64,000 nt of DNA, taken from Candidatus Omnitrophota bacterium (GTDB taxonomy: Bacteria > Omnitrophota > Omnitrophia > Omnitrophales > Aquincolibacteriaceae). Where the stretch lies: NCBI GenBank assembly GCA_022705945.1, contig JAKJDL010000005.1, positions 15,825 to 79,824 of the forward strand, given 5' to 3'. Positions 15,379 to 63,272 of this stretch are shown here, piece after piece. Positions within the stretch are counted from its first letter, which is position 1. Each line of letters opens with the position of its first letter. The notes below the pieces were generated by a model that saw only the letters and a program-made list of their open reading frames with translations, did not search any database and had not been told where the DNA came from. Position numbers and translations under genes: made by a program.

Positions 15379-15727
<349 letters not shown>

Positions 15728-44141: not shown

Positions 44142-44164
44142 TTCCGGAACCCTTCGGGTTTTTT

Positions 44165-45043: not shown

Positions 45044-45079
45044 TTTTTGCCGATATGAAAGGATAAAGGGGGAGTGAAC

Positions 45080-47113: not shown

Positions 47114-47239
47114 ACCGGTTTATTCGGGAGGACAGTTTGACATACAAGAAATATCAGGTGAACAAAGCCCGTCGAGCCGTTTGAAGCTCTCACGGAAAGG
47201 TGAACGTCGAAAAACCCGGACCGGGAAGGAGGAAGTATC

Positions 47240-47434
47240 ATGACGTTAGCGGAAGCGAAAGCGAAAGCGAAAGAAAAGATTATTCTCAAGGATGAAGAGA
47301 GGACCCGTTGCGAAGTCTGGACGCGCGTGATGGGTTATCATCGTCCCGTCGCGGGATTCAATGTGGGGAAAAAAGGCGAGTTTTATGAAAGGAAATACTT
47401 CAAGGAAGCCGCGTGCGACTGCGGAGCCAGGTGA
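47240..47434 (+). CDS. Stand-alone 64-aa NrdD C-terminal glycyl-radical domain protein
   Basis: 'TRVMGYHRPVAGFNVGKKGEFYERKYF' matches the NrdD glycyl radical motif (RVCGY...FNxGKxxE...R). Strong own RBS GGAAGGAGG 6 nt upstream. Separated from nrdD by 126 nt that contain several stops in all continuing frames. Confidence 0.7.
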   Translation: MTLAEAKAKAKEKIILKDEERTRCEVWTRVMGYHRPVAGFNVGKKGEFYERKYFKEAACDCGAR

Positions 47435-48158: not shown

Positions 48159-48407
48159 CCCTGGTGTGATACGCGAAGTTTTGAAGAATATATCCTCTTG
48201 TCGTGACGGTTTTTGCTTGCCGCTCGCCCACGCCTGCGATCCTCGCGCAGAATCTTGAGAAGTGAAATTCCGGTCATTCGGGAATGCGCATCGTTCGGGA
48301 TGACCGTGTTTTTGGCATCCCGCCAGAAAATCGGCAAGGCAAGAGTCGGGGTTCTGCCGTTTTTTTTGGGAACATGAGAAAGAATGTTTTAACAAGTTGA
48401 GGATTGG

Positions 48408-49742
48408 ATGTCGCGTTTAGTCAGGGATAAAGTGTTTTTGACGGTTTTTCGTATGGCGGTTCCGATGCTCGCCGGGACCTTCGCCATGAATATGTATAAC
48501 ATGGTCGATACGTGGTTTGTTTCCCGGTTGGGGACCCAGGCGCTGGCGGCGATGTCGTTTACTTTCCCGGTGGTGATGTTCGTCAGTTTTGTGATGCGGG
48601 GAGTGGGGACCGGCGCGATGACGGTGGTCGCCCACGCGCTGGGAAGACAGAAACATCAAGCCGCGGCGAGGATTACGACGCACGCCATTTTTCTGGCGTC
48701 GGGGATTTCGCTCATCCTGACGGGGGCCGGCCTGTTGACCTTTGAACCGCTGTTTCTCCGGCTGGGCGCTTCCGGGGAGGTGCTTGACCTGGCCCGGCAA
48801 TACATGACGATTTGGTATTGGGGGCTCATTTTCCGAGTTCTGCACATCATGCTGGCGGACATTATTATCGGGACAGGGGACAGCAGGACGGTGAGTTTTT
48901 TGATGGTCGGAGGGACGCTTCTGAATTGCGTGCTCGACCCGGTGATGATTTTTGGCTGGGGGTTTTTCCCGAGGATGGGGATCCGGGGAGCCGCGCTGGC
49001 GACGGTGATCGCCGAATTGTTTGTGATGGCGGCGGCGTATTATTTTGTCCACCGGAAATATCATTTAATCTCTTTCGCGGCTTACTCCCGGCGGCGAATG
49101 ATGGCATCCTGGTACAGGATTCTACAGATCGGATCGTCGGCGATGGTAAGCTCCGTCCTGACCCCGGTATCGGCCGCGATTGTAATCAGGATCGTCGCCG
49201 GTTTCGGACGGTCGGCCGTGGCCGCGGTCGGGGTCGCGGCCCGGATTGAAATGTTCGCATTTATGATTCCGATGACGGTCGGGATGTCCCTCGTCCCGTT
49301 TGTCGCGCAAAATTACGGGGCGAAACGTTTTGACCGGATCCGGACGGTGCGGAGGGGAGCGTTCATTTTCGCGCTCGCGTTCGGATTTGTGAGCGCCGGG
49401 ATTCTTCTGCTTATCGCGCGGCCCCTCGGACGGCTGTTTTCTTCGGATCCCGCCGTGGTGGATGTCCTGGTGCGTTATATTTACATCACCTGCTTCGGAT
49501 ACGGCTTCCTGGAAGTACACCGGTACGCGACGTTTTGCATGACCGGCATTCACCGGCCGATGATGGCCACCACCCTGAATGCCATTCGCGTTTTGGTCCT
49601 GATGATTCCGATGGCGTTTTTGGGGGCGAAATGGTTCGGCCTCTACGGAGTTTTCTGGGGGCGGTTGTTGACCGATCTCCTTGCGGCCGGAATCGGGATC
49701 ATCTGGTCGGGAAAAATTCTCAAAAAAATGATCCCCGAGTGA
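48408..49742 (+). CDS. MATE family efflux transporter
   Basis: 12-TM protein with MATE/NorM-DinF family periodicity. 444 aa. Confidence 0.8.
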   Translation: MSRLVRDKVFLTVFRMAVPMLAGTFAMNMYNMVDTWFVSRLGTQALAAMSFTFPVVMFVSFVMRGVGTGAMTVVAHALGRQKHQAAARITTHAIFLASGISLILTGAGLLTFEPLFLRLGASGEVLDLARQYMTIWYWGLIFRVLHIMLADIIIGTGDSRTVSFLMVGGTLLNCVLDPVMIFGWGFFPRMGIRGAALATVIAELFVMAAAYYFVHRKYHLISFAAYSRRRMMASWYRILQIGSSAMVSSVLTPVSAAIVIRIVAGFGRSAVAAVGVAARIEMFAFMIPMTVGMSLVPFVAQNYGAKRFDRIRTVRRGAFIFALAFGFVSAGILLLIARPLGRLFSSDPAVVDVLVRYIYITCFGYGFLEVHRYATFCMTGIHRPMMATTLNAIRVLVLMIPMAFLGAKWFGLYGVFWGRLLTDLLAAGIGIIWSGKILKKMIPE

Positions 49743-49801
49743 CCTTCCGACGCTGTGTTTCGTCAGAACAGGCCTTTTTCAAATTTAAAAAGCCGGGCGC
49801 T

Positions 49802-49940
49802 ATCCTTCCGCTAATTATGTAATGTGTCTCCGGTGTTCTGGGGTATAATTCCGCTTATGTCGAACGATCAGATCATGCCTTCCGGCTATCGAAAGCTTCT
49901 TGCGGAGATTGTCGGTCTCTATGATAGCGCGCGGCGGACG
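49802..49940 (+). repeat. Left 139-bp direct repeat (attL-like) carrying the promoter and first 41 codons of the DUF1016-nuclease gene
   Basis: Identical to 60429-60567 by direct comparison. Contains TGGGGTATAAT and an ATG at 49857. The downstream reading frame diverges after the repeat and terminates at 49988. Confidence 0.9.
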
Positions 49941-49977
49941 ACGCCGGACCTTCCGGATGACCCGTATTTCTTTTTAA

Positions 49978-50532
49978 AGGTCGTATGAGCATAGCGTTTC
50001 ACAGTTAAAATGCCCCGATCTTTACGCGGTGGCTTGTCTGGTGCTCGATTTTTTGAGTGTCCATCCCTTTAGAGACGGTAATGGCAAGGTGGGCAGGCTC
50101 TTGACGCTTCTTGCGCTCTGCCAGCACGGCTATATGGTCGGCAAACATATCAGCCTTGAACGCGTTATTGAGCAGTCAAAAGAAACATACTACGAAACGC
50201 TCAACAAGAGCTCGCAGAAATGACATGAGGCCAAGCATGATGTCATGCCGTGGTTCAATTATTTCCTCGGGACAGTGCTTGCGGCTTATAAGGAATTTGA
50301 AGAACGGGCAGAACAAATAAAACCCGGAAGGGGCGCCAAGACACAAATAGTAACACAGGTCATTGAGCGACAATCCGGCGAGTTTGCTATTTCTGAGATA
50401 CAACGCGAGTGTCCGGGCGTTAGTCGTCCAATGATTCGAGTGATTCTCGAAGAACTTCGAGCCAAGGGGAAGGTTGAGGTGCTCGGAACCGGTAGAAGTG
50501 CCCGATGGCGTAAACGTGATAATAAGTCGTGA
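49978..50532 (+). pseudogene. Fic/DOC family gene remnant: N-terminally truncated at the repeat boundary, with an in-frame TGA at 50221
   Basis: Fic motif 'HPFRDGNGKVGR' (HPFx[DE]GNG[RK]xxR). Two same-frame ORFs (50029-50223, 50245-50532) separated only by TGA. The upstream frame is open back to 49978, but no N-terminal Fic region is present. Confidence 0.7.
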
Positions 50533-50944
50533 AACGTGATAATAAACGTGATAACAACTGAAATGGCTCAATCGGCTCAGTGAGGGATAATAAATTGCTC
50601 AAGTTCCCCGGGAGCGGAAAGGGTTTAAGGGGGTAGGCGGGGCCAAGATTGCTCATATTCAGGCCGCGCTTGAAATCGGGCGGCGCTATCGACAAGGACG
50701 ATGTGTCCACCGGGAAGCAAAAGATCGCCTCTGCCAAGGATGTTGTTGATATATCATGCCACACCTCCGCGACCTCAAAACCGAGATGTTCAAGGTCATC
50801 TGTCTCCATTCAAACAATCGGATTATAGAAATCACAGATGCGATGTCCGGGAAGGTCCAAAAAGGCGTTTTGACGGACATGGATGGACATGATTTTACTG
50901 ACCTGCAATAGATATTCTTCTTGACTCTCAAGCGCACCACACTA

Positions 50945-51010
50945 AAATGTCCACTAATCGGAAATATCCACTAAATAGTGGACATTTAGGGAAAGTAGAC
51001 ATTTAGTAAT
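50945..51010 (+). promoter_or_regulatory. Palindromic operator-like repeats upstream of the wHTH gene
   Basis: 'TGTCCACTAA', 'ATCCACTAAATAGTGGACATTTAG' (perfect palindrome TCCACTA-AAT-TAGTGGA) and 'GTAGACATTTAG'. Repeated half-sites 35-95 nt upstream of the start. Confidence 0.55.
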
Positions 51011-51060
51011 ATCTTGGTTTACAGAGGGCCAAGTAAGGATTGAGTGAAGGAGTTGCTACG

Positions 51061-51735
51061 ATGAAAATACTTTTAGGGGATAAGGCGAACATAATTATAC
51101 GCGCCATGCTATCTCAACCCGATAGGAAATGGGTTGCCAGAGATTTTGAGAAAGAATTTGGCGTGGGGCGCGCGCATGCGGCAAAAGTATTATCAGAATT
51201 GCGCGCCAAGGGGTTTGTCGGAGGAGTCCGGTCTGGCAGGCTCGCGTACAGTATATTACAAAATAAAGAAGAACTTCTCGAGGAATGGCTTAAAGTCTAT
51301 AAGTTTGAGCTTAACGAAGCCCATCTTTATTATTCAACCCGAGAGGATATTCTTTCCCGGCTAAAGGAATATTTTGCGGGAAAGAAAGAGCCCAATCAAT
51401 ACGCACTGACGCTTCATACCGGAGCTAATCTCATTACCAGCTACGTGAATACGCAGACGATATATTGTTACTTGCCGGTAGCGGATTTCAAACGCGCCTC
51501 GCTAGACTTGCGGCAGGTGCTTGATTTGAAGGAATTAAAAACGGGCGGTAATTTCTATTTAATAAACCCATATTATCGAAGCGCCACATTTTTCAATGCC
51601 CAGGCGATCAAAGGCTACAACGTTGTTTCGAATCTCCAGCTTTATTTGGACCTCTACCATTATCCGCAGAGAGGCAGGGATCATGCCGAGTATTTACTCA
51701 AAACATTAAAAGGGGAAGGAAAGCCAATTGCTTAA
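51061..51735 (+). CDS. wHTH-domain protein, AbiEi-like putative antitoxin/transcriptional regulator
   Basis: N-terminal MarR/wHTH-like segment 'DFEKEFGVGRAHAAKVLSELRAKGFVGGVRSGRLAYSIL'. Start taken at ATG 51061 (RBS GAAGGAG); ORF open from 51040. Overlaps the downstream nucleotidyltransferase gene by 8 nt. Confidence 0.5.
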   Translation: MKILLGDKANIIIRAMLSQPDRKWVARDFEKEFGVGRAHAAKVLSELRAKGFVGGVRSGRLAYSILQNKEELLEEWLKVYKFELNEAHLYYSTREDILSRLKEYFAGKKEPNQYALTLHTGANLITSYVNTQTIYCYLPVADFKRASLDLRQVLDLKELKTGGNFYLINPYYRSATFFNAQAIKGYNVVSNLQLYLDLYHYPQRGRDHAEYLLKTLKGEGKPIA

Positions 51736-52519
51736 AGAATTCCCGGGAGAAAAACTTCTCATTAAAGTTATAGACGATCTGGCTGATTTTTTGCCGTACC
51801 TTGTTCTGGTCGGCGGTTGGGTGCCGTACATTTATGCCAAACACATGTGGAAAGACATCCCCAATATGGCAGTGACTACCGGAGATATTGATTTCGGTGT
51901 CGGAGATCATGATTTTAAAGGGAAGGATACCGTTGCTTCTCGGGTGCAACGATTGGGATATGGCGAGCGTCACGTTTCAATGGACAGATTGATTCCCTTT
52001 GTGCCTATTGTGAAAGATTCATCGGGAGATGCTAAAGCAGAGGTCGAATTTATTACCGATCCCAAGGTTTCCCGGAAAGTCATCAATAAGATCGTTGGTC
52101 AAGAGATCAAGATTAATGAAATCCGGCATTTCAGCCTGTTGCTTGGCTCTGTCATGCCGGTAAAAATGAACGGTAAGAGTATTCAGATACCGACAGAATC
52201 GATGTTTGTTTTCCATAAACTGCTGACGTTTGTGGATCGGGAAAATAAGGCTAAACTCAAGAAGGATCTTTATTACGTTTATTATATGATCAGATTCAGT
52301 CCGACAAAGGCGCAGCTTTGTGACGACGTGGTCGGCCTTATCAAAAAACTTAAAGAAGGCAGACAGGTCAAAGAGAATCTCAAAGAGTATTTTGCCAGCG
52401 TTGATTCGAAGGGGCCATTATTTGTTGAGCAGGAAAACGGCCCGGACGCTTATGTTGCGAACGTAAGAGAAGACGCGTTTGAAAAGTTCGGAGATATTCG
52501 GCGAAGGGTTGAGGAATGA
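51728..52519 (+). CDS. Nucleotidyltransferase-fold protein, AbiEii/DUF1814-like putative toxin
   Basis: 'LVLVGGWVPYIY...TGDIDFGV' fits the minimal nucleotidyltransferase GS/GG...DxD pattern. 263 aa. Translationally coupled to the wHTH gene. Confidence 0.5.
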   Translation: MLKEFPGEKLLIKVIDDLADFLPYLVLVGGWVPYIYAKHMWKDIPNMAVTTGDIDFGVGDHDFKGKDTVASRVQRLGYGERHVSMDRLIPFVPIVKDSSGDAKAEVEFITDPKVSRKVINKIVGQEIKINEIRHFSLLLGSVMPVKMNGKSIQIPTESMFVFHKLLTFVDRENKAKLKKDLYYVYYMIRFSPTKAQLCDDVVGLIKKLKEGRQVKENLKEYFASVDSKGPLFVEQENGPDAYVANVREDAFEKFGDIRRRVEE

Positions 52520-53120
52520 GAGCCTTCGCCATCGGTGACGTCCACGGCGCCTACAAGGCGATGATGCGGTGCTTTGAGCGTTCAAAGTTCGATTATAAGA
52601 AAGACCGCCCGATCGTGATGGGCGATGTTTGCGACGGGTATCCGGATGTCAGACAGCGCATTGATGAGTTATTAAAGATCAAGCATTGTGATCTGATCAT
52701 TGGAAATCATGATATGTGGGCGCTGGACTGGGCCTTGTGAGGCGACACCCCGGAGATATGGAGAAGCCAAGGCGGCGACCGGACAATGGCGTCGTATAAC
52801 GGCGGACCTATGCCGCAGGCGCACATCGACTTCCCAAAAACGGACATCTTTGGTTGGAACTTGGGAATAAACTTTTTGTCCATGCCGGTTTTGTGCCGGA
52901 TTTGCCATTGGAGCAAGATAGCGTTCAGGTACTTGTGTGGGACAGGTATTTACTCAAAGACGCGTGGGAAGCGGATAATTATAGACGGGAAGCGCAGATC
53001 ATAAAATATGACGACATTTTATCGGACACACGACAACAGAGCTTTATAGGACGCTTGAGCCGCTTCATGTTTGCAACGTGTGGGATTTGGACACCGGCGC
53101 CGGTTGGTCAGGCAAGCTGA
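52516..53120 (+). pseudogene. Fragmented calcineurin-like metallophosphoesterase (Ser/Thr phosphatase/ApaH-like)
   Basis: 'AIGDVHG...GDVCDGYP...GNHDMW' (motifs GDxHG, GDxxDRG-like, GNHD/E) in 52516-52740. The C-terminal 'LFVHAGF' piece is in another frame (52854-53120). At least two frameshifts or stops. Confidence 0.6.
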
Positions 53121-53353
53121 CGATTATGATGGATATTGATACAAAGGAATACTGGCAATCGGAGTTATCAAAAGATTTATACGGCGGGACACCGGGCAAT
53201 TTAGCTGGGACGAAATAATATGAACTACTGGTGGACATCGGGTGCGTTCACGAGAAATATAAGATCAAGCGAGAGGCCGGATGATACTTGTTCTTGAGTG
53301 AACGCCGGACACCGTCCGGCAACAGAAACCATAAGTCATGAAAGAGGTTTTAT

Positions 53354-54976
53354 ATGCAATGGATAGCGCCTGCAGAAAAGAATGAAGCGAACGATCTTCT
53401 GGAAAAACGGCTGTGGGACGCCGCCGATCAGCTCCGGGCTAACTCCGGCCTGACTTCAGCCCAATACTCCCAGCCCGTCCTTGGGCTTATTTTCCTACGG
53501 TTTACCGACAGCCGGTTCAAGGTCCAGCAGGCCAAGATAAAAAAAGCAGGTAAGACCTCCCGGCGCGGATCCCGCGTCGAAGATTCTGCCGCCTATCACG
53601 CCGAAGGCATCCTGTATCTGGCGCCCGGAGCCAGGTTCGACGAGCTCCTTTCATACCCTGAAGGCGGTAAAGGCGGAAAGTCGCTCGGCCAGGCGATCAA
53701 CGAAGCCATGAGGAATATCGAGCGTGATAACCCTCAACTCGCCGGTGTCCTTCCCAAGACCTACGAAACCTTCGAGGCTCGGATCCTTGCGGAGCTTCTT
53801 AAAGTTATTTCCACGATTCCGTCTGACCTTGAAGGCGACTCCTTCGGAAAGATCTACGAATACTTTCTGGGTGAATTTGCCATGACCGAAGGACAAGCCG
53901 GAGGAGAGTTCTACACGCCGACGGCTATTGTCCGGTTGATCGTCGAGATTCTCGAACCGTTCCATGGGCTTATCCTTGATCCTGCCTGCGGATCGGGCGG
54001 TATGTTCGTCCAAAGCGCTCGGTTTGTGTCAGAACACCGGAAGAATCCTTCGAGCGAAATCAGCATCCACGGACAGGAGAAAGTAGACGCCACAGTCCGC
54101 CTCTGCAAGATGAACCTCGCGGCGCACGGTCTTGAAGGAGACATCAAGCAGGCCATTACCTATTACGATGACCTCCACAAGAGCACAGGCCGGTTCGACT
54201 TCGTTCTCGCCAATCCTCCGTTTAACGTCAATGCCGTGGACAAGGAACGTCTCAAAAGTGACGTCGGCCCGGGCAAACGCTTCCCGTTCGGGTTGCCACG
54301 CACAGACAACGCGAACTATCTCTGGATCCAGCTGTTTTATTCGGCGCTGAACAGTAAGGGCCGCGCCGGTTTTGTGATGGCTAACTCCGCGTCTGATGCG
54401 CGCTCTTCCGAACAGGAGCTTCGCAAAAAGCTCATCGAAGACCGTGCTGTTGATGTGGTGATCGCTGTCGGGCCGAATATGTTCTACACCGTGACGCTCC
54501 CGTGCACGCTCTGGTTTTTGGATAAAGGGAAGAAGAAAACACCGCGAGCGGATACGGTTTTGTTCGTTGATGCGCGGCAAATTTATCGACAAATATCAAA
54601 GGCTCAAAGAGACTGGACTCCGGCGCAGATCAGTTTTATCTCCAATATTGTGCGGCTCTATCGTGAAGAAGAACCCGACTTTACCCTTGGCAGGGATGAA
54701 GCGGCCAAGCGGGTTTCCGAAGCCTTCGGAAAGAAACCCCAATACAAGGACATCCCAGGTCTTTGCAAGGTTGTGACGATCAAGCAAATTGAAAAACAGG
54801 GCTGGTCGCTCAATCCCGGCCGCTACGTTGGTGTTGCGCCCGGTGGAACCCTCAGCAACGAGGACTTCAAGGAGCAGTTTGAAACTCTGAACGAAGAACT
54901 TGAAACCTTGAATGTTCAGGCCCGCAAACTTGAGCAAACCATCGCTCGCAACGTGACGGAGATTCTAGAGGCATGA
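53354..54976 (+). CDS. hsdM: Type I restriction-modification system, DNA methyltransferase subunit
   Basis: HsdM N-terminal '[13 protein letters not shown]...VLGLIFLRF'. SAM motif '[11 protein letters not shown]'. Catalytic 'NPPF'. 540 aa. Confidence 0.9.
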
Positions 54977-56175
54977 CGAAGGTCGAGCTCCGCACAGTTC
55001 GAATTGGTGACTTGGGCCGCGTCATCACCGGCAAGACACCACCGAGCGCCTACCCAGAACTGTTCGGGGAGGAATTTCCGTTTCTTACCCCTACAGACAT
55101 TGACGGTGTTGCGCGTTACATCGAACCAGAACGCTTCCTATCGCTAAAGGGATACGATCACCAGCAACAACTGCTTCTTCCGCCGCGCTCTGTCTGTGTT
55201 GTTTGTATTGGCGCTACGATCGGCAAAGTCTGCATGACCAACAAGCCATCGTTTACAAACCAGCAAATCAACTCCGTCGTTGTGAACGAAAGGGAACATG
55301 ACCCCATTTTTGTTTACCACCTTCTTACGACCTTGCGCGATGAGTTGAAATTAAATGCTGGTGGCGCTGCGACGCCGATCATTAACAAGACAGCTTTTTC
55401 AGAGATCGAAATCAATGTCCCGACATTGCTGGAGCAGCAGCGGATTGCGAACATTTTGTCGGCTTACGACGAACTGATCGAGAACAGTCAGCGGCGCATC
55501 CGGATATTGGAGACGATGGCCCGTGCTCTTTACCGTGAATGGTTCGTCGATTTTCGTTTTCCCGGCCACGAAAAGCATCCCCTTGTTGCCTCATCCATTG
55601 GCAATATCCCCAAAGGCTGGGAGGTCAAAAAACTCAAGGATGTCGGTCGCCTCACAATGGGTCAGTCGCCCAAGTCAGAGTTCTATAACGAGACGGGAGA
55701 AGGTCAGCCATTCCATCAGGGGGTGACCGATTTTGGTGATCGCTTTCCAACCGACCGCTTGTTTTGCGCCATCGAGGGGCGCGTTGCTGAAGCTGGCGAC
55801 ATTCTGTTTAGTGTTCGTGCTCCCGTCGGACGCATGAACATTGCTGATAAGAAAATCATCATTGGTCGTGGCTTGTCCGCTATCCGAGATAACAACGGCC
55901 ATCAATCCTTTCTCTGGGAGCAGTTGCGCAACCGTTTTGCTAAAGAAGACATGATGGGTAACGGTGCAATCTTTGCAGCAGTAACAAAAGATGATATGCA
56001 AGGCATCGAGTTGCTTTGTCCGCCGCAATCACTCGTTGTGGATGCCGAGAAGCACCTTGTTTCGATTCACGAAAAAGTTAGCATTCTCACTCGCCAAATT
56101 CAAAACCTCCGCCGCACCCGCGATTTTCTTTTGCCGCGATTAATGTCGGGACAATGTAATCTTCAGGAGGTTTAA
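54973..56175 (+). CDS. hsdS: Type I restriction-modification system, specificity subunit (two TRDs)
   Basis: Overlaps the hsdM stop. Duplicated TRD architecture with conserved central and C-terminal coiled-coil repeats ('[29 protein letters not shown]', '[22 protein letters not shown]'). Confidence 0.85.
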
Positions 56176-56315
56176 GTCGTGGCTCTTCCGCACAGATTCA
56201 TTTTGATGGCGAGTTTTATTAACGAGGGAGCTTTTGAGGAATCGATTGAACAAAGTCTGACCCCCAATCGCGGGGGTGAAAGGAATACCAGGGGAAATTG
56301 AAAAGAGGAAATGAA

Positions 56316-56951
56316 ATGGCTTATATTTTTCTTGATGAATCGGGCGACCTAGGTTTTGATTTTACGAAAAAAGGAACTACCCAGTATTTTGTAATCACAC
56401 TGCTCTTTGCGGATCACAAACGACCTATCGAAAAATGTGTCCGCACGGTTCACGCGCACTTGCGCAAGAGATTCAGGCGAATAGGAGGCGTTCTCCACGC
56501 GTGCAAGGAGGAAGACGTTACACGGCAGAGATTGCTACGATGCCTGTCGCAAAAGAATTGTGCCGTTATGACAATTTATCTCAACAAGAAGAGAGTTTAC
56601 ACGCGCCTACAGGATGAGAAAGCGGTCCTTTACAATTATGTGACGAACATATTGCTTGACCGGATTTTTACGAAGAAATTGGTTTCCTCCGACGACATTC
56701 ATCTGATTGCCTCCAAACGGGAAACCAACAAATTCCTTAACGAAAATTTCAGGTCCTATTTGAGACGGCAAATGATTGTAAATCATACTCGCAAAATTGC
56801 GGTTGAAATTCGGACACCGGCTGAAGAAAAAGCCTTGCAAGCGGTGGATTTTGTGAGTTGGGCAATATTCCGAAAACCGGAATGGCGGGATGATGTTTAT
56901 TACAACACGATCAGGGGAAAGATTGTGGAGGAGAATCCGTTATTCCCCTGA
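56316..56951 (+). CDS. DUF3800-family protein inserted between hsdS and hsdR
   Basis: 'MAYIFLDESGDLGFDF' is the DUF3800 hallmark. RBS AAGAGGAAA. ORF open from 56298. Confidence 0.65.
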   Translation: MAYIFLDESGDLGFDFTKKGTTQYFVITLLFADHKRPIEKCVRTVHAHLRKRFRRIGGVLHACKEEDVTRQRLLRCLSQKNCAVMTIYLNKKRVYTRLQDEKAVLYNYVTNILLDRIFTKKLVSSDDIHLIASKRETNKFLNENFRSYLRRQMIVNHTRKIAVEIRTPAEEKALQAVDFVSWAIFRKPEWRDDVYYNTIRGKIVEENPLFP

Positions 56952-57160
56952 AAATGGTAAAGCCTCATTCGCTGTTTACGAGGAACCCTGCGGAACCCCA
57001 CGAATGAGGACTTACTTACCGCACAAACTATAGCATTTTATTCATGATGATGCAATGCGCTATTTGATTAAAAATTACAATGTAAACCTAAAAAAGCTCA
57101 AAAAAAGCAAAAAAAAGCTTTAACTAATTTAGACTCAATGAGTTACTATTTGACGGTTAT

Positions 57161-60100
57161 TTGATTGCTGGGAGACAACGAATGCCCCATGATTATTCCG
57201 AAGACCAACTTGTAGAGCAGCCGGCGATACGGCTCTTTAAGGAGCTTGACTGGGACACGACTTCAGCTCTTGAGGAAGTCCTTGGTCCAGGTGGGACGCT
57301 GGATCGTGAAACGAAGTCAGAAGTTGTTCTCATCTCCCGGTTGCGCGCAGTACTTGTCCGACTGAATCCCGCGTTACCACCTGAAGCCATCACAAGCGCC
57401 ATTGATGAACTGATTCGCAACCGTTCGGCGACGAGTCTTGCCGGCGCTAACCGCGAAGTCTCTGAGCTTCTCCGGGAAGGTGTAAAGGTTTCGGTTTCTG
57501 ACCGTGAGCACGGCGGGCAGAAGACGGAGAGAGTTCGGATCATTGATTGGGATAATCCCGCGTCCAACGACTTCCTTCTTGTCAGTCAGTTCACTGTAAC
57601 CGGGCCGTTATATACCTGCCGGCCGGATCTGGTGGGATTTGTGAACGGGATTCCGTTTGTGGTGATCGAACTGAAGAAGCCCGGCGTTCCTGTCCAGCAG
57701 GGGTTTGACGATAATCTGACCAGCTATAAACATCCGCAAAACGGTATTCCGCAACTCTTCTGGTATAACGCGCTCCTTATCGTCTCAAACGGCACGGACA
57801 GCCGTGTCGGGTCTGTTACGGCCGGATGGGATCATTTCGGGGAATGGAAACGCGTGAAAAGCGAGGCCGAACCACGCACGGTATCGCTTGAAAAGATGAT
57901 ACGCGGGACCTGCGCCAAAGAACGGCTGTTGGATCTAGCTGAAAACTTCACCGTCTTTTCGGAACAAAGAGCCGGGCTTTTGAAAATCTTGGCGCGAAAC
58001 CATCAGTATCTTGGTGTTAATAATGTGTTGTCGGCTCTTCAGGATGTCAAACGAAAGCACAGTCAGCTTGGTGTGTTCTGGCACACGCAAGGTTCGGGCA
58101 AGAGTTTTTCCATGGTCTATTTTTCTCAGAAGGTTCTGCGGAAGATACAGGGGAACTGGACTTTTGTCATAGTGACTGACCGGACGGAACTGGACGATCA
58201 GATCTACCGGACTTTCAAGGCGTGCGGTGCTACGAGCGAACATTGTCAGGCCGAAAGCTCCGCACATTTAAGACAGCTTCTTGGCGAGAATCACCGGTAT
58301 GTTTTTACTCTCATCCACAAATTCCGAACCGAGAACGGGACTCCTCATCCGATATTGAGCGATCGCAATGACATCATCGTGTTGACCGACGAAGCCCACA
58401 GGAGTCAATACGACACGCTGGCGCTCAACATGCGGACGGCTTTGCCCAACGCTTTGTTTCTTGCCTTTACCGGCACGCCGCTCATTAAGGGCGAAGAAGA
58501 ACGGACCCGTGAAGTCTTTGGTGATTATATTTCGGTCTATGACTTCCAGCAGTCGGTTGAGGACGGTGCGACTGTTCCTCTGTTCTATGAAAACAGGACG
58601 CCCGAATTAAGACTGAAGAACCCGGATCTGAATGACCAGATTTATGATCTGATCGATGAAGCGGGGCTGGATCCGGCTCACGAAGAACGGTTGGAGCAAG
58701 AGCTGGGACGGCAGTATCACATTATTACCCGCGATGACCGTCTGGATACGATTGCCCAGGACATTGTCCGAAACTTTCTGGGGCGGGGGTTTATCGGTAA
58801 GGCGATGGTCGTATCGATCGATAAGGCAACGGCGCTCCGGATGCATGACAAGGTCCGGAAGTATTGGGCGGAAGATCTCAAGAGAACACAGAAGGAATGG
58901 GATGAGATCACATCTTCCGGAGACAAGTATGATTCGGAAAAGAGGCGTGTCCTTGAAGAACGGTTGAAGCTGCTTAAAGAGACCGACATGGCCGTTGTGG
59001 TCTCGCCGGGGCAGAATGAGATCGAACAAATGAGAGCTCTCGGGCTTGATATCGTTCCGCACCGGGAGCGGATGAACAGAGAGCCTCTGGATGAGAAATT
59101 TAAGGACCCGAAAGATCCATTCCGGATCGTGTTCCTTTGCGCGATGTGGCTCACCGGTTTTGATGCGGAGTGTTGCTCGACTATTTATCTGGACAAGCCG
59201 ATGCGGAACCACACTTTGATGCAGACCATCGCCCGGGCGAACCGTGTTTTTCCCGGTAAATACAACGGTTTGGTCGTGGACTATGCGAATGTTTTTGCGT
59301 CCCTGGAGCGGGCGCTTGCGATTTACGGTAAGAGGAAAGGTGGAGAAAGGCCGGTCCGAGACAAGAAAAAGCTCGTTGAAAATCTCCGGAAGGCGGTTGA
59401 GGATGCGGTGAAGTTCTGTGATAAACACGGGGTCAGTATCAAGTCGATCGAAAAGATACCGGCCGGAACGATGGACAGGCTTACCGCTATTGCTGAAGCG
59501 GTTAACCCGCTCATTTCGCCGGATAAGGTGCGAAAGGACTTTTTCGCCGCAGAGAAGCTGGCAATGACACTTTATAACGCGGTTAAACCGGATCCGGTGG
59601 TCCTGGAATTTTCTTCCAGAATTAGCTGTCTTGCGACCATTGCGAATGTTATCCGGGAACGGACCGGCGGAAATGTTCCTGTCGATATCACGGCCATTAT
59701 GGGGGATATTAACCGCCTGCTTGATGAGTCGATTGAAGCTGAGGGCTTCAGGATCAGGGAAAAGACAGGTAGCGGGATCGAAGGCGTTATTGATCTCAGC
59801 CGGATTGATTTCGAGGCCCTGGCCAGGCAGTTCAAGAAATCCAAGTGCAAGAATCTGGGGCTGGAGTCGCTAAAGGCGGCGATCCGCGCCCAGCTGGAAC
59901 GTCTGATCCGGCTTAACAGGAACCGTGCTGATTATCTGGCTAAGTTCGAGGAGCTGATCGAGTCTTACAATGCGGGGAGCCGGAATATCGAGGAGTTGTT
60001 CAGGGAACTTCTGGTTTTCAGCCGGTCGTTGAATGAGGAAGAGAAGAGGCATGTTCGGGAAAACCTGAGCGAAGAAGAACTGACGATTTTTGATGTTCTG

Positions 60101-60379
60101 GTCCGCCCCGGTCCGGATCTTTCATCCGACGAGCGGGAGCAGGTCAAGAAGGTAGCCAGGGAGCTCCTTCAAAGGCTTCGGTCTTTATTTGTGATCAACT
60201 GGCGGGAAAGGGTTCAAACCCGAGCGCGGGTGGTGGAAGCCATCAAGGATGAACTGGATCGACTCCCGGGTGGATACACGCAAGACCTTTACCAGCTAAA
60301 ATGTTCAGCCGTGTTTGAGCATGTCTACGAGAGTTACTTTGGCGAGGGTAATAGCGTTTTTGTATCTTCGCAATCCTGA
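57161..60379 (+). CDS. hsdR: Type I restriction enzyme, R (endonuclease/translocase) subunit
   Basis: HsdR N-terminal nuclease region. SF2 helicase motifs ('HTQGSGKS', 'VLTDEAHRSQY', 'FTGTPL'). 1072 aa. Alternative ATG at 57182. Confidence 0.9.
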   Translation: MIAGRQRMPHDYSEDQLVEQPAIRLFKELDWDTTSALEEVLGPGGTLDRETKSEVVLISRLRAVLVRLNPALPPEAITSAIDELIRNRSATSLAGANREVSELLREGVKVSVSDREHGGQKTERVRIIDWDNPASNDFLLVSQFTVTGPLYTCRPDLVGFVNGIPFVVIELKKPGVPVQQGFDDNLTSYKHPQNGIPQLFWYNALLIVSNGTDSRVGSVTAGWDHFGEWKRVKSEAEPRTVSLEKMIRGTCAKERLLDLAENFTVFSEQRAGLLKILARNHQYLGVNNVLSALQDVKRKHSQLGVFWHTQGSGKSFSMVYFSQKVLRKIQGNWTFVIVTDRTELDDQIYRTFKACGATSEHCQAESSAHLRQLLGENHRYVFTLIHKFRTENGTPHPILSDRNDIIVLTDEAHRSQYDTLALNMRTALPNALFLAFTGTPLIKGEEERTREVFGDYISVYDFQQSVEDGATVPLFYENRTPELRLKNPDLNDQIYDLIDEAGLDPAHEERLEQELGRQYHIITRDDRLDTIAQDIVRNFLGRGFIGKAMVVSIDKATALRMHDKVRKYWAEDLKRTQKEWDEITSSGDKYDSEKRRVLEERLKLLKETDMAVVVSPGQNEIEQMRALGLDIVPHRERMNREPLDEKFKDPKDPFRIVFLCAMWLTGFDAECCSTIYLDKPMRNHTLMQTIARANRVFPGKYNGLVVDYANVFASLERALAIYGKRKGGERPVRDKKKLVENLRKAVEDAVKFCDKHGVSIKSIEKIPAGTMDRLTAIAEAVNPLISPDKVRKDFFAAEKLAMTLYNAVKPDPVVLEFSSRISCLATIANVIRERTGGNVPVDITAIMGDINRLLDESIEAEGFRIREKTGSGIEGVIDLSRIDFEALARQFKKSKCKNLGLESLKAAIRAQLERLIRLNRNRADYLAKFEELIESYNAGSRNIEELFRELLVFSRSLNEEEKRHVRENLSEEELTIFDVLVRPGPDLSSDEREQVKKVARELLQRLRSLFVINWRERVQTRARVVEAIKDELDRLPGGYTQDLYQLKCSAVFEHVYESYFGEGNSVFVSSQS

Positions 60380-60428
60380 GTGTACCGGGATCTATTCTCA
60401 AAGCCGCAAATTTCAAAAGCAAGATACC

Positions 60429-60567
60429 ATCCTTCCGCTAATTATGTAATGTGTCTCCGGTGTTCTGGGGTATAATTCCGCTTATGTCGAACGATCAGAT
60501 CATGCCTTCCGGCTATCGAAAGCTTCTTGCGGAGATTGTCGGTCTCTATGATAGCGCGCGGCGGACG
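60429..60567 (+). repeat. Right 139-bp direct repeat (attR-like), forming the 5' end of the intact DUF1016-nuclease gene
   Basis: Identical to 49802-49940. Confidence 0.9.
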
Positions 60568-61482
60568 CTGGTTCACGCGCACTGGGAGATCGGAAAGCGG
60601 ATTGTCCGGATTGAGCAGGACGGCGCCGCCCGCGCGGCTTACGGGGCGGGACTGCTTGTGAGGCTCTCTGAGGACCTGACCCGGGAAAGAGGAGTCGGGT
60701 TTTCGCCGAGCAGTATCAAGCGGTTCCGGCAGTTTTATCTGTTGCACCCAAAAGGTGCGCCGGCGCACCTTTTGACCTGGGCGCATCACGCGGAGCTTCT
60801 CACGGTCCGTGACCGAAAGACCCGGTTACTGCTCGAAAAACGCGCGGATGAGCAGGGGATGACCCGTGATGAACTGCGAAAGTTGATCCGCGAAAGGCGC
60901 GGAATTGGAAAAGGCGATCGGGGTGAGGTCGCTGACGGGACGCCCCTTGTCCCGAAAAAGGGACCGCTCGGCCTTTATCAGATCAGAAGCGGAGCTGACA
61001 TCGGGTGGCCGCGGTCCGGCGTGCTTGTTTTTGACCACGGGTTTCGTTTTTATGATGCGCTGGACGACACGCAGGCGCAAGGTCTCGCGGCGGGTGATTT
61101 TGTGGAGGAGCGGGACGGTAAGCTCGTGAAGGCGGATCAAGCGAAGCGGCCCGGTTATACCTACACGGCTTATTTGCAGGAGGTGATCGACGGGGACACG
61201 CTCCGGGTCGCGCTGGATGCGGGGCTTGGAGGAATTGCCCGTCAAAAGCTGCGCTTGCGCGGGATCGACTGTCCCGAGATCGATACGCCGGAAGGGAAGG
61301 CCGCGAAAGTGTTTGTCGAGACTGTCCTGGAGGAAATTTCCTCGATGACCGTTTACACCTCAAGGAATGCCACTCACGACCGCTATGAGGCGGATGTGTT
61401 TTTTAATGACCAAGACGGCCGGGAAGTTTTCCTGAACGGTCTTTTGCTGGACACGCGACACGCCGTCCGGATGAAGAGGTAA
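60484..61482 (+). CDS. DUF1016 (YhcG-like) N-terminal domain fused to staphylococcal-nuclease (SNase/thermonuclease) domain
   Basis: N-terminus 'YRKLLAEIVGLYDSARRTLVHAHWEIGKRIV...SIKRFRQFY' matches the DUF1016 N-terminal pattern. C-terminus 'VIDGDTLRV...RLRGIDCPE...GKAAKVFVE' matches SNase. The TATAAT lies only about 8 nt upstream of the ATG (possible leaderless transcript). ORF open from 60451 (GTG). Confidence 0.7.
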   Translation: MSNDQIMPSGYRKLLAEIVGLYDSARRTLVHAHWEIGKRIVRIEQDGAARAAYGAGLLVRLSEDLTRERGVGFSPSSIKRFRQFYLLHPKGAPAHLLTWAHHAELLTVRDRKTRLLLEKRADEQGMTRDELRKLIRERRGIGKGDRGEVADGTPLVPKKGPLGLYQIRSGADIGWPRSGVLVFDHGFRFYDALDDTQAQGLAAGDFVEERDGKLVKADQAKRPGYTYTAYLQEVIDGDTLRVALDAGLGGIARQKLRLRGIDCPEIDTPEGKAAKVFVETVLEEISSMTVYTSRNATHDRYEADVFFNDQDGREVFLNGLLLDTRHAVRMKR

Positions 61483-61483
61483 G

Positions 61484-61600
61484 ATGAAAGTGCTGTCAAA
61501 GACTTTCAGCTGCCCTGATTCCTGTTTATCTCAAGGGAGATCAGGACTGCAAAAGTCCCGGTAAATGAATGAAAGTATTATTGAAGACTTTCGGCTGGCC
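61484..61600 (+). promoter_or_regulatory. Two copies of an imperfect palindromic about 33-bp motif (TGAAAGT-N10-ACTTTCA) upstream of the DUF4062 gene
   Basis: ATGAAAGTGCTGTCAAAGACTTTCAGCTGCCC (61484-61516) and ATGAAAGTATTATTGAAGACTTTCGGCTGGCC (61566-61598). Confidence 0.5.
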
Positions 61601-61718
61601 ATTGGCCCCGCGTTTACACCCGCCTTTGCGCCATACTTTTTAAGCTCTACCCGTGAGCAGTTTGGTATAATCCGCAAAGGTTCGTGGCGTTTTTAATCGT
61701 GTGGCAGGGGAAGGCAAA

Positions 61719-63272
61719 ATGACCAAGCGCAAGATATTCATCAGCAGCGTTCAGAAGGAGTTCAAGGATGAGCGGGCCGCCTTGAGGGATTTTATCTCCG
61801 GCGATCCCTTGTGCAGGCGCTACTTTGACTGTTTTCTTTTCGAAGATATTCCCGCCCAGGACCGCAGGCCGGACGCCGTCTATATCGATGAAGTCAGGGA
61901 TTGCGATATCTATGTGTGTCTTCTCGGCAATGAATACGGAGCTGAAGATGCCCGCGGATCTTCGGCTACGGAGCGGGAATTCAGGGAGGCGACGGAGCGC
62001 GGAAAGACGCGGCTTCTTTTTGTCAAAAACACGACTGAAAAAGACCGTCACCCTAAAACAGCTAAATTGATCAACAGAGCCGGCAACGAGGTTATTCGCC
62101 GGAGGTTTTCCAACGCCCCGGAATTGATCTCGCAACTGTATGCAGCCCTTGTGCAGTATTTGGAGGAGCAGTGTCTTTTGCAGACCGTTCCGTTCGATGC
62201 TGCTTCCTGCCGCAATGCTGTTTTGGGCGACATTGACGAATCTGCCGTTGGGAATTTTCTTGAGGCTGCCCGGGCCGAACGCAAGTTCCCCTTGCCGCCA
62301 CGCACTTCGGCGAAAAAGCTTTTCACTCATTTGAACCTATTCAATAACGGCAAGCTGACGCATGCCGCGGTCCTGTTGTTCTGCAGGAATCCCCAGAAGT
62401 TCCGCGCCCTGTTATGTGCCGAGGTTAAATGTATGCATTTTCACGGGACCGAGGTGCAAAAGCCGATCCCTTCGTACCAAACCTACCGGGGAACATTGTT
62501 CGAACAGGTTGATGAAGCTGTTGATTTCGTGCTCGGTAAACTGGATCGCACGGTCACGCCCAGCAAAACCGCTGTTGCGAGCGATGTATCGTATGAGATA
62601 CCCAAAATGGTGATCCGCGAAGCAATCGTTAACGCGGTCGCGCATCGGGATTACACATCCAACGCAGGCGTTCAGGTCATGCTGTTTGCGGATCGACTTG
62701 AGATCTGGAACCCAGGGGCACTTCCTGAAGGGATGACGCCGGCGACCCTACGGAAAGCCCATGCCTCTGTGCCGAGAAACCCGCTGATCAGCGATCCGCT
62801 TTTCTGGGCGAGATACATTGAACGGGCGGGAACCGGAACGATCGACATGATCGCTCTGTGCAAGAAAATGAAGATCCCGGAGCCTTCGTTTCAGCAGCGG
62901 GGAGGTCAGTTCGTCCTGATAATCCGTCGCAAGAAGAAGGCCCCTCCGAAAGCCCGGCCCATCACCCACGAGGTTCAGGGACCAAGTCGGCACCAAGTCG
63001 GCACCAAGTTGGCACTAAGTCAGCACCAAGTTGAGATATTGCATAAGTGTCAGGCTGAGAGCAGGATAGCCGATCTCATGAAGATCACTGGGCGGACAGA
63101 TCGCACCAAGTTCAGGCATCAGGTGCTTAGTCCTCTCGCAGATGCGGGATTGATCGAAATGACGGTTCCTGACAAACCCCAAAGCAGTAATCAGAAGTAC
63201 CGGTTGACGGAAAAAGGGGTTGCGTATTTACAAGGGCGCAAAAGGGCTGCGTGCTTCACGGCAAAGTTGTGA
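61719..63272 (+). CDS. DUF4062 - AlbA_2 (Schlafen-like) - HATPase_c_4 - wHTH protein
   Basis: N-terminus 'KIFISSVQKEFKDERAALRDFI...CDIYVCLLGNEYG' (DUF4062 pattern). Central AlbA_2-like region. 'IREAIVNAVAHRDY' (HATPase_c_4). C-terminal wHTH. RBS GGGGAAGG. ORF open from 61701. Confidence 0.65.
   Translation: MTKRKIFISSVQKEFKDERAALRDFISGDPLCRRYFDCFLFEDIPAQDRRPDAVYIDEVRDCDIYVCLLGNEYGAEDARGSSATEREFREATERGKTRLLFVKNTTEKDRHPKTAKLINRAGNEVIRRRFSNAPELISQLYAALVQYLEEQCLLQTVPFDAASCRNAVLGDIDESAVGNFLEAARAERKFPLPPRTSAKKLFTHLNLFNNGKLTHAAVLLFCRNPQKFRALLCAEVKCMHFHGTEVQKPIPSYQTYRGTLFEQVDEAVDFVLGKLDRTVTPSKTAVASDVSYEIPKMVIREAIVNAVAHRDYTSNAGVQVMLFADRLEIWNPGALPEGMTPATLRKAHASVPRNPLISDPLFWARYIERAGTGTIDMIALCKKMKIPEPSFQQRGGQFVLIIRRKKKAPPKARPITHEVQGPSRHQVGTKLALSQHQVEILHKCQAESRIADLMKITGRTDRTKFRHQVLSPLADAGLIEMTVPDKPQSSNQKYRLTEKGVAYLQGRKRAACFTAKL

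Follow-up and report, generated by a model that had tools for sequence, protein, structure and literature searches.

A nuclease-gene stub beside a defence island in an uncultured Omnitrophota bacterium as a probable scar of recombinase-free, homology-anchored recombination

The window analyzed here is a stretch of 64,000 nucleotides in which approximately 10.5-10.6 kb of defence-type genes and pseudogenes lie between two copies of a direct repeat. The repeat derives from the 5' end of gene D, a DUF1016-SNase gene located at the right edge of this segment. The features of the locus are as follows.

48408-49742, + strand: MATE efflux gene, the left neighbour (Pfam MatE, 8.4e-57)
49773-49801, + strand: D upstream region of the left copy outside the perfect repeat, with a diverged patch AAAAAGCCGGGCGCT shared only with contig L039 (alignments)
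49802-49940, + strand: left copy of the perfect repeat (139 bp), made up of 55 nt of D upstream sequence and the first 28 D codons, start codon ATG at 49857 (D-profile match at HMM positions 1-28)
49941-49977, + strand: junction filler between the D stub and the Fic remnant (sequence), with a 5-nt deletion in L039 (alignment)
49978-50532, + strand: Fic pseudogene (Pfam Fic, 7.6e-07; DIP2311-like_C)
50607-50805, + strand: internal RadC fragment truncated on both sides, 88% identical to positions 16188-16386 of contig L005, inside a RadC gene at 15974-16681
51040-52519, + strand: AbiEi_2-like wHTH gene (51040-51735) overlapping an NTP_transf_8 nucleotidyltransferase gene (51728-52519) (Pfam)
52516-53187, + strand: metallophosphatase pseudogene, a 74-aa N-terminal fragment followed by decayed sequence (Pfam Metallophos, 4.7e-07)
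53354-60379, + strand: type I R-M cluster of hsdM (53354-54976), hsdS (54973-56175), a DUF3800 gene (56316-56951) and hsdR (57182-60379) (Pfam)
60407-60567, + strand: right copy, the D upstream region in its ordinary allele (60407-60428) and the 139-bp perfect repeat (60429-60567)
60484-61482, + strand: intact gene D, 332 aa, with DUF1016_N (Pfam, 1.8e-22) and a C-terminal staphylococcal-nuclease-like domain
61483-61605, + strand: segment Z, which travels with D, with two copies of a 29-nt motif (61484-61512 and 61569-61597)
61701-63272, + strand: right neighbour, a DUF4062 - HATPase_c_4 - Fic-like_C protein (Pfam; PADLOC matches to pAgo-associated domains)

Pairwise alignment of 49802-49940 with 60429-60567 gave no mismatches over 139 bp, in agreement with the first-pass annotation, which had also correctly placed this piece of the DUF1016-SNase gene on both sides of the defence-type cargo. 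A repeat search found one direct-repeat family in the window (49780-49940 and 60407-60567, 161 nt, 96% identity, spacing 10627), and a 48-nt piece of the repeat occurs exactly twice in the window while none is expected from 100 shuffles. Since homologues of D begin at the ATG at 49857 and 60484 in alignments, the repeat consists of 55 nt of upstream sequence and D codons 1-28; its coding part had previously been given as 41 codons, and counting from an upstream GTG yields 39. Past the repeat, the left-copy frame stays open for 15 further, unrelated codons before a stop at 49986-49988. The -10 element that had been reported is present as a literal TATAAT at 49843-49848 inside the left copy, but the promoter scan called no full sigma-70 site there. 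Homology between the copies extends leftwards beyond the perfect repeat to 49773 and 60407, past a diverged patch of 12-15 nt, and this extension is also homologous to the D upstream region in relatives.

Logan contigs from two other runs (L001 and L002) are 100% identical to window positions 45889-51754 and 48211-50694. These and the JGI metagenome contig L039 are three independent contigs that run across the entire left copy and into unique sequence on either side. The left copy and its junction are thus not an artefact of one assembly, which had been raised earlier as a possible explanation of the repeat. The right junction of hsdR to D (approximately 60380-60428) is known from the window alone and is spanned by no other contig on record. 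This would be compatible with an assembly error in which the 139-bp repeat led to a mis-join, the real molecules being an empty MATE-D locus and a separate circular or tandem island. Contig L036 ends at window position 60409 and UBA1443 (L014) has an N run at the expected place of a 91-bp repeat, so assemblers evidently struggle at the D locus. However, the two copies can be told apart by their upstream alleles, and hsdR is joined to D upstream sequence regardless, so the cargo has D 5' sequence at either end no matter what comes next. We therefore consider a mis-join extremely unlikely.

Within the 139 bp, both copies represent the same allele, and all 6 differences from the sister lineage are common to both. 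This would be expected if the D 5' region had been duplicated in place by replication slippage or unequal crossing-over and the cargo gained between the copies later. Relatives carry what resemble old tandem duplications of D, Z and cargo, with Z and Z' 82-94% identical and a 32-aa stub 88% identical to the 5' end of a 168-aa gene. Yet the copies differ directly upstream of the perfect repeat, by the diverged patch and an indel, and the left upstream version accompanies the Fic junction in L039; the cargo would need a separate insertion mechanism anyway. The upstream difference fits two parental molecules better than duplication in place, which we regard as improbable.

At the left junction, D breaks off at codon 28 and is fused to the interior of a dead Fic gene; both partners are truncated. 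Approximately 116 N-terminal residues of the Fic protein are gone and an in-frame TGA is found at 50221-50223; the HPFRDGNG motif and the C-terminal wHTH are kept. Full-length Fic homologues have 296-316 aa, and an open 163-aa version (P0135) was also found. This junction, odd upstream patch included, recurs in contig L039 at 99.2% identity, where it is preceded by the 3' end of a 4070-aa gene in place of MATE. The blastn homology of L039 to the window stops at 53187, a further module junction, where RadC and a C5 DNA methylase follow instead of hsdM. The island had been proposed to result from site-specific or homology-mediated insertion into the 5' end of D. The homology-mediated option fits the data; a discrete site-specific insertion found no support, given the truncation of both D and Fic, and neither did a unitary island, given the different surroundings of the same junction in L039.

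The G+C content of the cargo is 0.43-0.55 versus 0.55-0.59 in the flanks. All cargo genes named in the first-pass annotation were borne out by Pfam, although it had missed the RadC fragment. The AbiEi_2 and NTP_transf_8 genes, which have no PADLOC match, are a putative AbiE-like toxin-antitoxin or abortive-infection pair by their domains. The R-M cluster matches PADLOC models for MTase_I (5.8e-221), Specificity_I (3.9e-81) and REase_I (2.8e-169), and pieces of it are 99.9% identical in three other samples. The cargo is a mosaic: the AbiE-like pair and the type I R-M system with its DUF3800 gene are apparently working modules, and Fic, RadC and metallophosphatase are remnants of deletion. The right neighbour is also defence-associated, and the variable region runs on to the window end. 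Profile searches for cryptic recombinases confirmed the earlier impression of their absence, as Pfam revealed no recombinase, transposase or integrase domain in any island ORF, long antisense ORFs included. The repeat search found no terminal inverted repeats at the island.

Alleles of D are 95-99% identical at the nucleotide level over at least four upstream and at least three downstream contexts. Upstream neighbours are MATE, hsdR, a 32-aa stub after SoFic, or the 4070-aa gene; downstream neighbours are a 174-aa gene, or Z with either DUF4062 or an OXA-like PBP after it. On the left, D homology ends within an interval of approximately 10 nt in four contexts. On the right, homology between different contexts stops just past one of the two copies of the 29-nt Z motif, which is operator-like (GAAAGT-N10-ACTTTC). 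Blastn comparison of the window with the sister lineage gave 94.8% identity for MATE and 95.7% for D versus 75.7% for nrdD and 84.2% for nrdG. The D allele of contig L050 is a mosaic of window and sister types (Fisher p = 2.9e-9): at the 41 positions where the window and L003 alleles differ, with W and L marking a match to the former and the latter, it reads 14 W, L, W, 20 L and WWWLW. Proteins P0124, P0130 and P0134 are likewise mosaics.

Stubs of D of differing kinds were found near intact D in five lineages. The window-type stub has residues 1-28 and the L003-type stub is a 91-bp 3' end with 96-100% identity. L016 carries an internally deleted D copy and a 3' stub, and in L024 the D 5' end is repeated over 170 bp at 92% identity. 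In L025, a fragment covering D-profile positions 24-89 lies approximately 8 kb upstream of D and a 3' fragment (236-336) directly upstream. An empty site with MATE directly followed by D had been predicted; we looked for it and found none, and in all ten sister-lineage contigs (0/10 empty) the order is MATE, the 91-bp copy of the D 3' end, SoFic, D. Among the contigs on record there was also no loop-out or excised-circle junction.

Taken together, these findings make it probable that the repeat is a scar left in the hypervariable defence island of this uncultured Omnitrophota bacterium by homology-anchored recombination without a recombinase, followed by decay through deletion. Several observations argue for exchange anchored at D: the left junction truncates both genes and has RadC and metallophosphatase remnants in the same stretch; it recurs in L039 with other genes upstream and downstream; D alleles are internally recombined (L050; P0124, P0130 and P0134); near-identical D occurs with many different neighbours; MATE and D are far closer to the sister lineage than nrdD and nrdG; diverse D stubs lie near intact D in five lineages; and recombinase, transposase and terminal inverted repeats are lacking. 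Because D is near-identical between strains, and also between two lineages with only 76-84% identity in their core genes, it would supply the homology for recombining in cargo DNA. Incoming DNA with different defence cargo would recombine through D, and the cargo would end up flanked by two directly oriented D copies, or by one D copy and a fragment of D in the same orientation. One intact D would suffice, so the other copy would decay. In the window, the MATE-proximal copy survives only as 55-84 nt of upstream sequence and 28 codons, its stub joined to mid-Fic, itself dead, by an illegitimate or deletion joint. The 139-bp identity would permit a RecA-type loop-out of 10.6 kb; nothing in the data suggests dedicated excision machinery for this segment. 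We infer the route of DNA entry and, since neither a MATE-D empty site nor a loop-out or circle junction was found, the polarity of events. As to their order, we lean slightly towards tandem D copies followed by deletion over insertion in a single step through two crossovers, one homologous and the other illegitimate.

Some observations do not sit easily with D-anchored exchange. The hsdR-to-D junction is known from this window only. The 5' duplications in the window and L024 break after residue 28 and about 6 aligned codons further on, approximately 18 nt apart in D genes that are only about 35% identical, which hints at some site preference. Random recombination also does not predict the nearly constant left edge of D homology or downstream junctions right after a repeated motif.

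A different reading is a site-specific integrative element that inserted at the D 5' end and brought a replacement 5' end, its integrase having been lost or acting in trans. A direct repeat of target sequence around cargo of lower G+C, an intact gene restored at one side and the independent duplication in L024 all resemble this, and a large serine recombinase occurs in the variable region of one relative (L006). Targeting of 5' ends, previously described as unusual, has a precedent (PMC2791158), so that description needs qualifying. We nevertheless consider such an element unlikely: there is no recombinase in or beside the island, two truncated genes are fused at the left junction, and occurrences are not colinear, as L039 departs at 53187. 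Other D stubs are 3' ends or internally deleted copies of no single type, the edge of D homology differs by copy (49773 versus 60407), and 139-170 bp of identity is much longer than typical att cores. The repeat is real and probably a leftover D stub that offers shared homology for exchanging defence genes among uncultured Omnitrophota bacteria, rather than the border of a mobile element that inserts itself.

Another possibility is homing-like behaviour, in which the D nuclease would cut in or near D genes and break repair would capture foreign cassettes and duplicate D ends. The recurrence of stubs beside D in five lineages, the sharply bounded D module, a perfect and conserved 24-nt palindrome inside D (60750-60773) and the combination of DNA-associated DUF1016_N with an SNase nuclease domain are in line with this. 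However, SNase-type nucleases are normally non-specific, all stub kinds are equally expected under plain homologous recombination with deletion, and genes of the DUF1016 type have been described before as passengers in R-M loci (PMC9881135). We find homing very unlikely.

Recombinase-free anchored exchange is of a type already known. In Neisseria minimal mobile elements, cassettes are exchanged by homologous recombination between conserved flanking genes (PMC3082526). As at our locus, differing cassettes occupy one slot between conserved sequences without dedicated mobility genes, anchor alleles are mosaic and exchange crosses lineage boundaries. The classical elements are not known to leave long direct anchor repeats, whereas the anchor D, in an uncultured Omnitrophota host, is itself a candidate defence nuclease, travels with the cargo and is partly duplicated. 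Orphan arrays at T6SS effector-immunity and Rhs/CDI loci arise by homology-facilitated illegitimate recombination (PMC5361080; PMC3240628). As proposed for D, an incoming module there uses a single conserved stretch as its anchor and has its other end joined illegitimately, with residents displaced and gene stubs and serial arrays formed without an integrase. At those loci, anchoring is by the conserved 5' portion of an effector or rhs gene, and orphaned 3' ends with immunity genes are left behind, in contrast to the 5' and 3' nuclease-gene stubs and anti-phage cargo found here. SXT, inserted at prfC, likewise occupies the 5' end of a protein-coding gene and keeps a working 5' end, but requires the tyrosine recombinase Int and short near-identical attP and attB and has a conserved backbone, all absent here.

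Accessory nucleases of the DUF1016 or YhcG type (PADLOC PDC-S02) sit in type I R-M loci (PMC9881135). Similarly, D has DUF1016_N, matches the PDC-S02 model (2.5e-26) and lies immediately 3' of hsdR. Unlike these nucleases, D has a staphylococcal-nuclease-like C-terminus in place of the usual PD-(D/E)XK, consistent with its SNc match and with PF00565 in its homologues. Among the homologues found, the DUF1016_N-SNase architecture occurs mostly in Omnitrophota and Planctomycetes MAGs.

A repeat search of the window, from an uncultured Candidatus Omnitrophota bacterium, returned a single direct-repeat family at 49780-49940 and 60407-60567 (161 nt, 96% identity, spacing 10627). The first-pass annotation had described 49802-49940 and 60429-60567 as identical, and in pairwise alignment all 139 bp agree without a mismatch. 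A 48-nt core of the repeat is present in two exact copies in the window and in none of 100 shuffles. The right copy begins an intact gene, as had been read; this gene, called D here, occupies 60484-61482 and encodes 332 aa. Since 30 homologues align from the ATG at 60484 (49857 in the left copy), the repeat consists of 55 nt of upstream sequence and 28 codons of D, where 41 codons had been counted earlier. The left copy, also as described, runs into unrelated sequence and a stop, with 15 unrelated codons in frame and an end at 49988. A -10 element had been assigned to the repeat; a literal TATAAT does lie 9 nt before the ATG, but a consensus scan called no complete promoter. An Rfam search of 47000-64000, a range containing both repeat copies and a segment travelling with D (Z, 61483-61605), gave nothing at E <= 0.1.

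The N-terminal part of D matches DUF1016_N in Pfam (PF17761, 1.8e-22) and PDC-S02 models in PADLOC (down to 2.5e-26), while its C-terminal half aligns with thermonuclease-type proteins and has a PADLOC SNc match. PF00565 is found in D homologues, which are annotated as "endonuclease YncB (thermonuclease family)" and number more than 900 at E <= 1e-5. YhcG_C, the PD-(D/E)XK nuclease domain, was not matched in D by Pfam or PADLOC. D belongs, as the PDC-S02 candidate type, with the DUF1016 accessory nucleases, for which type I R-M loci are enriched (PMC9881135). Their usual nuclease domain is PD-(D/E)XK, whereas that of D is SNase-like. A viral origin was rejected, since IMG/VR held no junction match and, for D, SNase-domain matches only.

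The following features lie between the repeat copies, from left to right:

49978-50532, Fic pseudogene with an HPFRDGNG motif, a C-terminal wHTH and an in-frame TGA at 50221-50223 (Pfam)
50607-50805, internal RadC fragment (comparison with relatives)
After the RadC fragment, an AbiEi_2-like gene overlapping an NTP_transf_8 gene (Pfam)
Between the NTP_transf_8 gene and hsdM, a metallophosphatase fragment of 74 aa
Rightmost cargo before D, hsdM, hsdS, a DUF3800 gene and hsdR, in that order

The earlier inventory of this cargo was correct as far as it went but had overlooked the RadC fragment. Relative to homologues of 296-316 aa, about 116 residues are missing from the N-terminus of the Fic pseudogene; at 35% identity, the pseudogene was ruled out as an orthologue of the SoFic gene of the relatives. 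AbiE systems, which act as type IV toxin-antitoxin or abortive infection systems, pair an AbiEi wHTH antitoxin with a nucleotidyltransferase toxin, AbiEii (PF08843), encoded downstream. In the pair found here the AbiEi_2 match has an E-value of 2.9e-07, the partner matches NTP_transf_8 (PF12281) and not AbiEii, and neither protein has a PADLOC match. The type I R-M cluster is complete in Pfam, with N6_Mtase/HsdM_N, two Methylase_S stretches and HSDR_N/SWI2_SNF2/T1RH-like_C, and PADLOC also assigns MTase_I, Specificity_I and REase_I to hsdM, hsdS and hsdR. G+C inside the island is 0.43-0.55, versus 0.55-0.59 in the adjacent MATE gene and D. Non-coding sequence upstream of the AbiEi-like gene (50845-51006) is 81-89% identical to positions 13058-13168 of L005, a sister-lineage contig, where it precedes a different AbiE pair (DUF6088 and AbiEii); between these two genomes, exchange seems limited to the toxin-antitoxin genes themselves.

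This stretch had been read as an integrase-free defence island of about 10.6 kb inserted into the 5' end of D. The absence of an integrase is borne out by Pfam analysis of all sense, small and long antisense ORFs from 49.8 to 60.6 kb, which revealed no recombinase or transposase domain. The repeat search found no terminal inverted repeats at the island ends. A transposon or IS was ruled out by the missing inverted repeats and transposase and by the length of the duplication (139-168 bp). Perfect direct repeats of the target at both ends do speak for a site-specific integrative element of the genomic island, IME, ICE or prophage type, but the repeat is far longer than usual att cores and there is no tyrosine, serine or DDE recombinase in or beside the island.

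The possibility that the duplication is an assembly artefact can be set aside for the left copy and its junction, which other contigs confirm, while the join of hsdR to D is known from the window alone. Two Logan contigs from other runs (L001 and L002) are 100% identical to the window across nrdD/MATE, the D stub and the adjoining part of the island, the junction of the D 5' end with Fic recurs at 99.2% identity in a JGI contig (L039), and pieces of the island were found again in three further samples at 99.9%. Samples containing this strain are ERR14064717, ERR14064714, SRR29782965, SRR21487924, JGI 3300010346 and JGI 3300025682. No retrieved contig spans hsdR to D; a look-up with the DUF3800 gene yielded only a 1.3-kb contig, and exact-protein look-ups for D (332 and 343 aa), the DUF4062 protein and hsdR returned no records. 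Because hsdR is joined directly to D-upstream sequence, D 5' sequence is present on both sides of the cargo, whatever comes after it.

L039 shows that the cargo is not a fixed block. It matches window positions 49773-53187 at 99.2% identity, covering a peculiar patch of 12-15 nt that borders the perfect repeat on its upstream side, the D stub, the junction, the Fic remnant, the AbiE-like pair and the metallophosphatase fragment. Left of 49773, MATE is replaced in L039 by the 3' end of a 4070-aa gene, and right of 53187 hsdM gives way to intact RadC and a gene for a C5 DNA methylase. The Fic remnant is open in L039 (507-998), with TGG in place of TGA and an ORF of 163 aa (P0135), so this remnant kept decaying after the two lineages split. 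The different flanks and cargo in L039 mean that the "island" is not one unit but several modules in series, joined at 49773, 49940, about 53187 and 60407. The left junction probably predates its flanks. This lack of colinearity also argues against an integrative element. Two further contigs, L034 and L050, have the 4070-aa gene and intergenic region as in L039, followed by an ordinary D upstream region and intact D, and look like the unoccupied counterpart of L039. They are no precise empty site, however, since they differ from L039 upstream of D: with the ordinary allele of the patch in L034 and L050, neither form can be derived from the other by simple crossover inside the 139 bp. A homology search with a 426-aa ORF of L034 gave no matches; this ORF is the 3' end of the 4070-aa gene, as seen in L050. 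A 3384-aa ORF of the window (27030-37184) was considered as a relative of the 4070-aa gene and shows no similarity to it. Neither this ORF nor the single tRNA of the window, a tRNA-Pro(CGG) at 15379-15455, is linked to the repeat.

An empty site with MATE directly followed by D had been predicted for related genomes, and it is absent from the ten sister-lineage contigs (L003-L008, L014, L035, L037 and L038). Neither the MATE look-up, nor a genome scan, nor a metagenome scan with a 52-nt repeat core revealed one. All ten share the upstream order PFOR, acetyl-CoA synthetase, nrdD, nrdG and MATE. MATE is then followed by a 69-nt spacer, a 91-bp copy of the D 3' end, Z, SoFic, a 32-aa ORF, D and a 172/174-aa gene. 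The 91-bp copy encodes D residues 322-341 and is 96-100% identical to the true 3' end, forming this repeat:

8237-8327 and 10963-11053 of L003, 91-bp direct repeat, also in L004-L008, L035, L037 and L038

It encloses a 2.7-kb segment with SoFic and D; in L014 (UBA1443) MATE and Z are separated by a run of N at the expected place of the left copy. The sister-lineage Fic gene is intact (380 aa, SoFic defence model, E = 9e-113). The 32-aa ORF is a 5' stub of a 168-aa gene located downstream of DUF4062 (L003 9787-9869 versus 14233-14315, 83 bp, 88%), and Z and a second version, Z' (82-94%), flank the slots of this ORF and the 168-aa gene. As a whole, the L003 locus resembles an ancient tandem duplication of a unit of D, Z and cargo. 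Strain-specific defence genes follow further downstream, including AbiE, metallophosphatase, RadC, other type I R-M genes and, in L006, a serine recombinase. The window D runs straight into Z, and 61422-61605 is 91% identical to the stub plus Z of the relatives, which indicates that their stub plus Z at MATE are the remains of a window-like D-Z unit. In a comparison of 41422-49743 and D with L003, identity rises from 75.7% in the nrdD region and 84.2% in nrdG to 94.8% in MATE and 95.7% in D. The MATE-to-D region was exchanged between the lineages. The identity switch lies in the nrdG-MATE spacer (about 48273-48363), which suggests that the flexible region begins before MATE and not at 49802.

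D behaves as a recombination anchor. At 95-99% nucleotide identity it has at least four different upstream neighbours (MATE, hsdR, the stub after SoFic and the 4070-aa gene) and at least three downstream (the 174-aa gene, Z then DUF4062, and Z then an OXA-like PBP in L036). Crossovers within D are apparent in the L050 allele (10001-10999), where 41 sites distinguishing window-type (W) from L003-type (L) alleles read W x14, L, W, L x20, WWWLW (Fisher p = 2.9e-9), placing crossovers near nt 370-440 and near nt 800; three D proteins (P0124, P0130 and P0134) are likewise mosaics of window and sister types. A D profile run on six-frame translations of all loci revealed D stubs near intact D in five lineages, including:

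Window type, D residues 1-28
L016, an internally deleted second D and a third 3' stub separated by a Fic gene
L025, profile positions 24-89 about 8 kb upstream of D and 236-336 directly upstream
L024 (a distant Omnitrophota MAG), 4732-4900 and 6210-6378, direct repeat of 170 bp, 92%

The L024 repeat comprises the D upstream region and about 37-46 codons, encloses a single AAA_14-DUF4143 ATPase gene and is independent of that in the window; its D reaches only some 35% identity. The two 5' duplications break off about 18 nt apart in aligned coordinates and not at the same nucleotide, a further point against an integrative element, for which recombinase, empty site and colinear content are all lacking. 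D and Fic are recurrent neighbours (L003 type, L016, L024 and L025). The D N-termini of L018, L020 and L021 were considered as extra break points near residue 28 and rejected, being present but divergent. A mixture of 5', 3' and internally deleted stubs is the expected residue of tandem D copies and random deletion, and a site-specific process should yield one kind of stub only.

We conclude that the repeat is the scar of recombinase-free, homology-anchored recombination. Incoming DNA with D and different cargo would recombine at the resident D, leaving D or part of it on either side of the cargo, and the redundant copy would decay. The MATE-proximal D would have been cut to 28 codons and fused to the neighbouring Fic gene, either through a later deletion or in a single event that joined the non-homologous end illegitimately, the route known from homology-facilitated illegitimate recombination (PMC3240628). 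We lean slightly toward the deletion route, as this stretch holds many further remnants of deletions. An in-place duplication is less favoured, since the sequence just upstream differs between the two repeat copies and points to two parental molecules. The 139-bp identity should also permit a predicted RecA-type loop-out of the 10.6 kb. The earlier reading of an insertion into the 5' end of D thus fits as homology-anchored exchange, but not as a discrete site-specific element.

A site-preferring process, or a role of the D nuclease itself, has a low probability but draws on several observations in addition to the close break points of the window and L024. In four contexts, the left edges of D homology lie within about 10 nt of one another. 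A 29-nt motif is present twice just past the D stop (61484-61512 and 61569-61597), each copy with the inverted repeat GAAAGT-N10-ACTTTC, and downstream of D, homology between contexts stops immediately behind one or the other copy. The motif looks like an operator; it was found at no other island junction in the window or in 13 loci searched, and the RNA fold of Z alone is not significant (z = -1.1). Finally, a perfect 24-nt palindrome, AAAAGGTGCGCCGGCGCACCTTTT, lies within the D coding sequence at 60750-60773 (residues HPKGAPAHLL) and is kept in all close D alleles. We consider it improbable that the arrangement of D 5' stub, cargo and intact D forms a recombinase-free gene-targeting cassette, whose arms, two parts of one conserved gene, would after uptake allow a double crossover into any genome with D and leave D intact. 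D genes would then be portable landing pads spreading defence cargo across Omnitrophota, possibly helped by the D nuclease, the palindrome or the operator-like motifs.

Homology-anchored exchange at D has known parallels. Cassette exchange is recognized by a shared anchor with different neighbours, as seen for D; by crossovers inside the anchor, as in the mosaic D alleles; and by illegitimate joints and stubs without mobility genes, as in the D5'/Fic junction, the RadC and metallophosphatase fragments, the 91-bp D stub and the stub of the 168-aa gene. The D locus matches the pattern of the minimal mobile elements of Neisseria, one known case of this behaviour (PMC3082526), and that of T6SS effector-immunity/Rhs displacement arrays, in which a conserved anchor and an illegitimate joint leave gene stubs with no integrase (PMC5361080). 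SXT at prfC is similar in outcome only, since the D locus lacks the Int and short att sites that define SXT (PMC2791158). The locus is a further example of known genome plasticity and not a new class of mobile element. It does show defence genes being reshuffled, apparently without integrases, in a candidate phylum never studied genetically, with a conserved nuclease gene acting as the recombination handle. Foreign cargo enclosed by a long perfect repeat does not suffice to identify a mobile element; once relatives were compared, an apparent integrase-less element became an ordinary scar of homologous or illegitimate recombination. The recurrence of D stubs, together with 5' break points that almost coincide in two distant genomes, offers a modest lead on the assembly of defence islands.

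Elsewhere in Omnitrophota (L018 9884-12089; L021 5465-6469), prfA is followed by a D homologue, with rho and rpmE lying upstream. In L018 the order is D, a SIR2_2-domain gene and a prmC-like gene, which makes a defence islet of two genes within a housekeeping operon.
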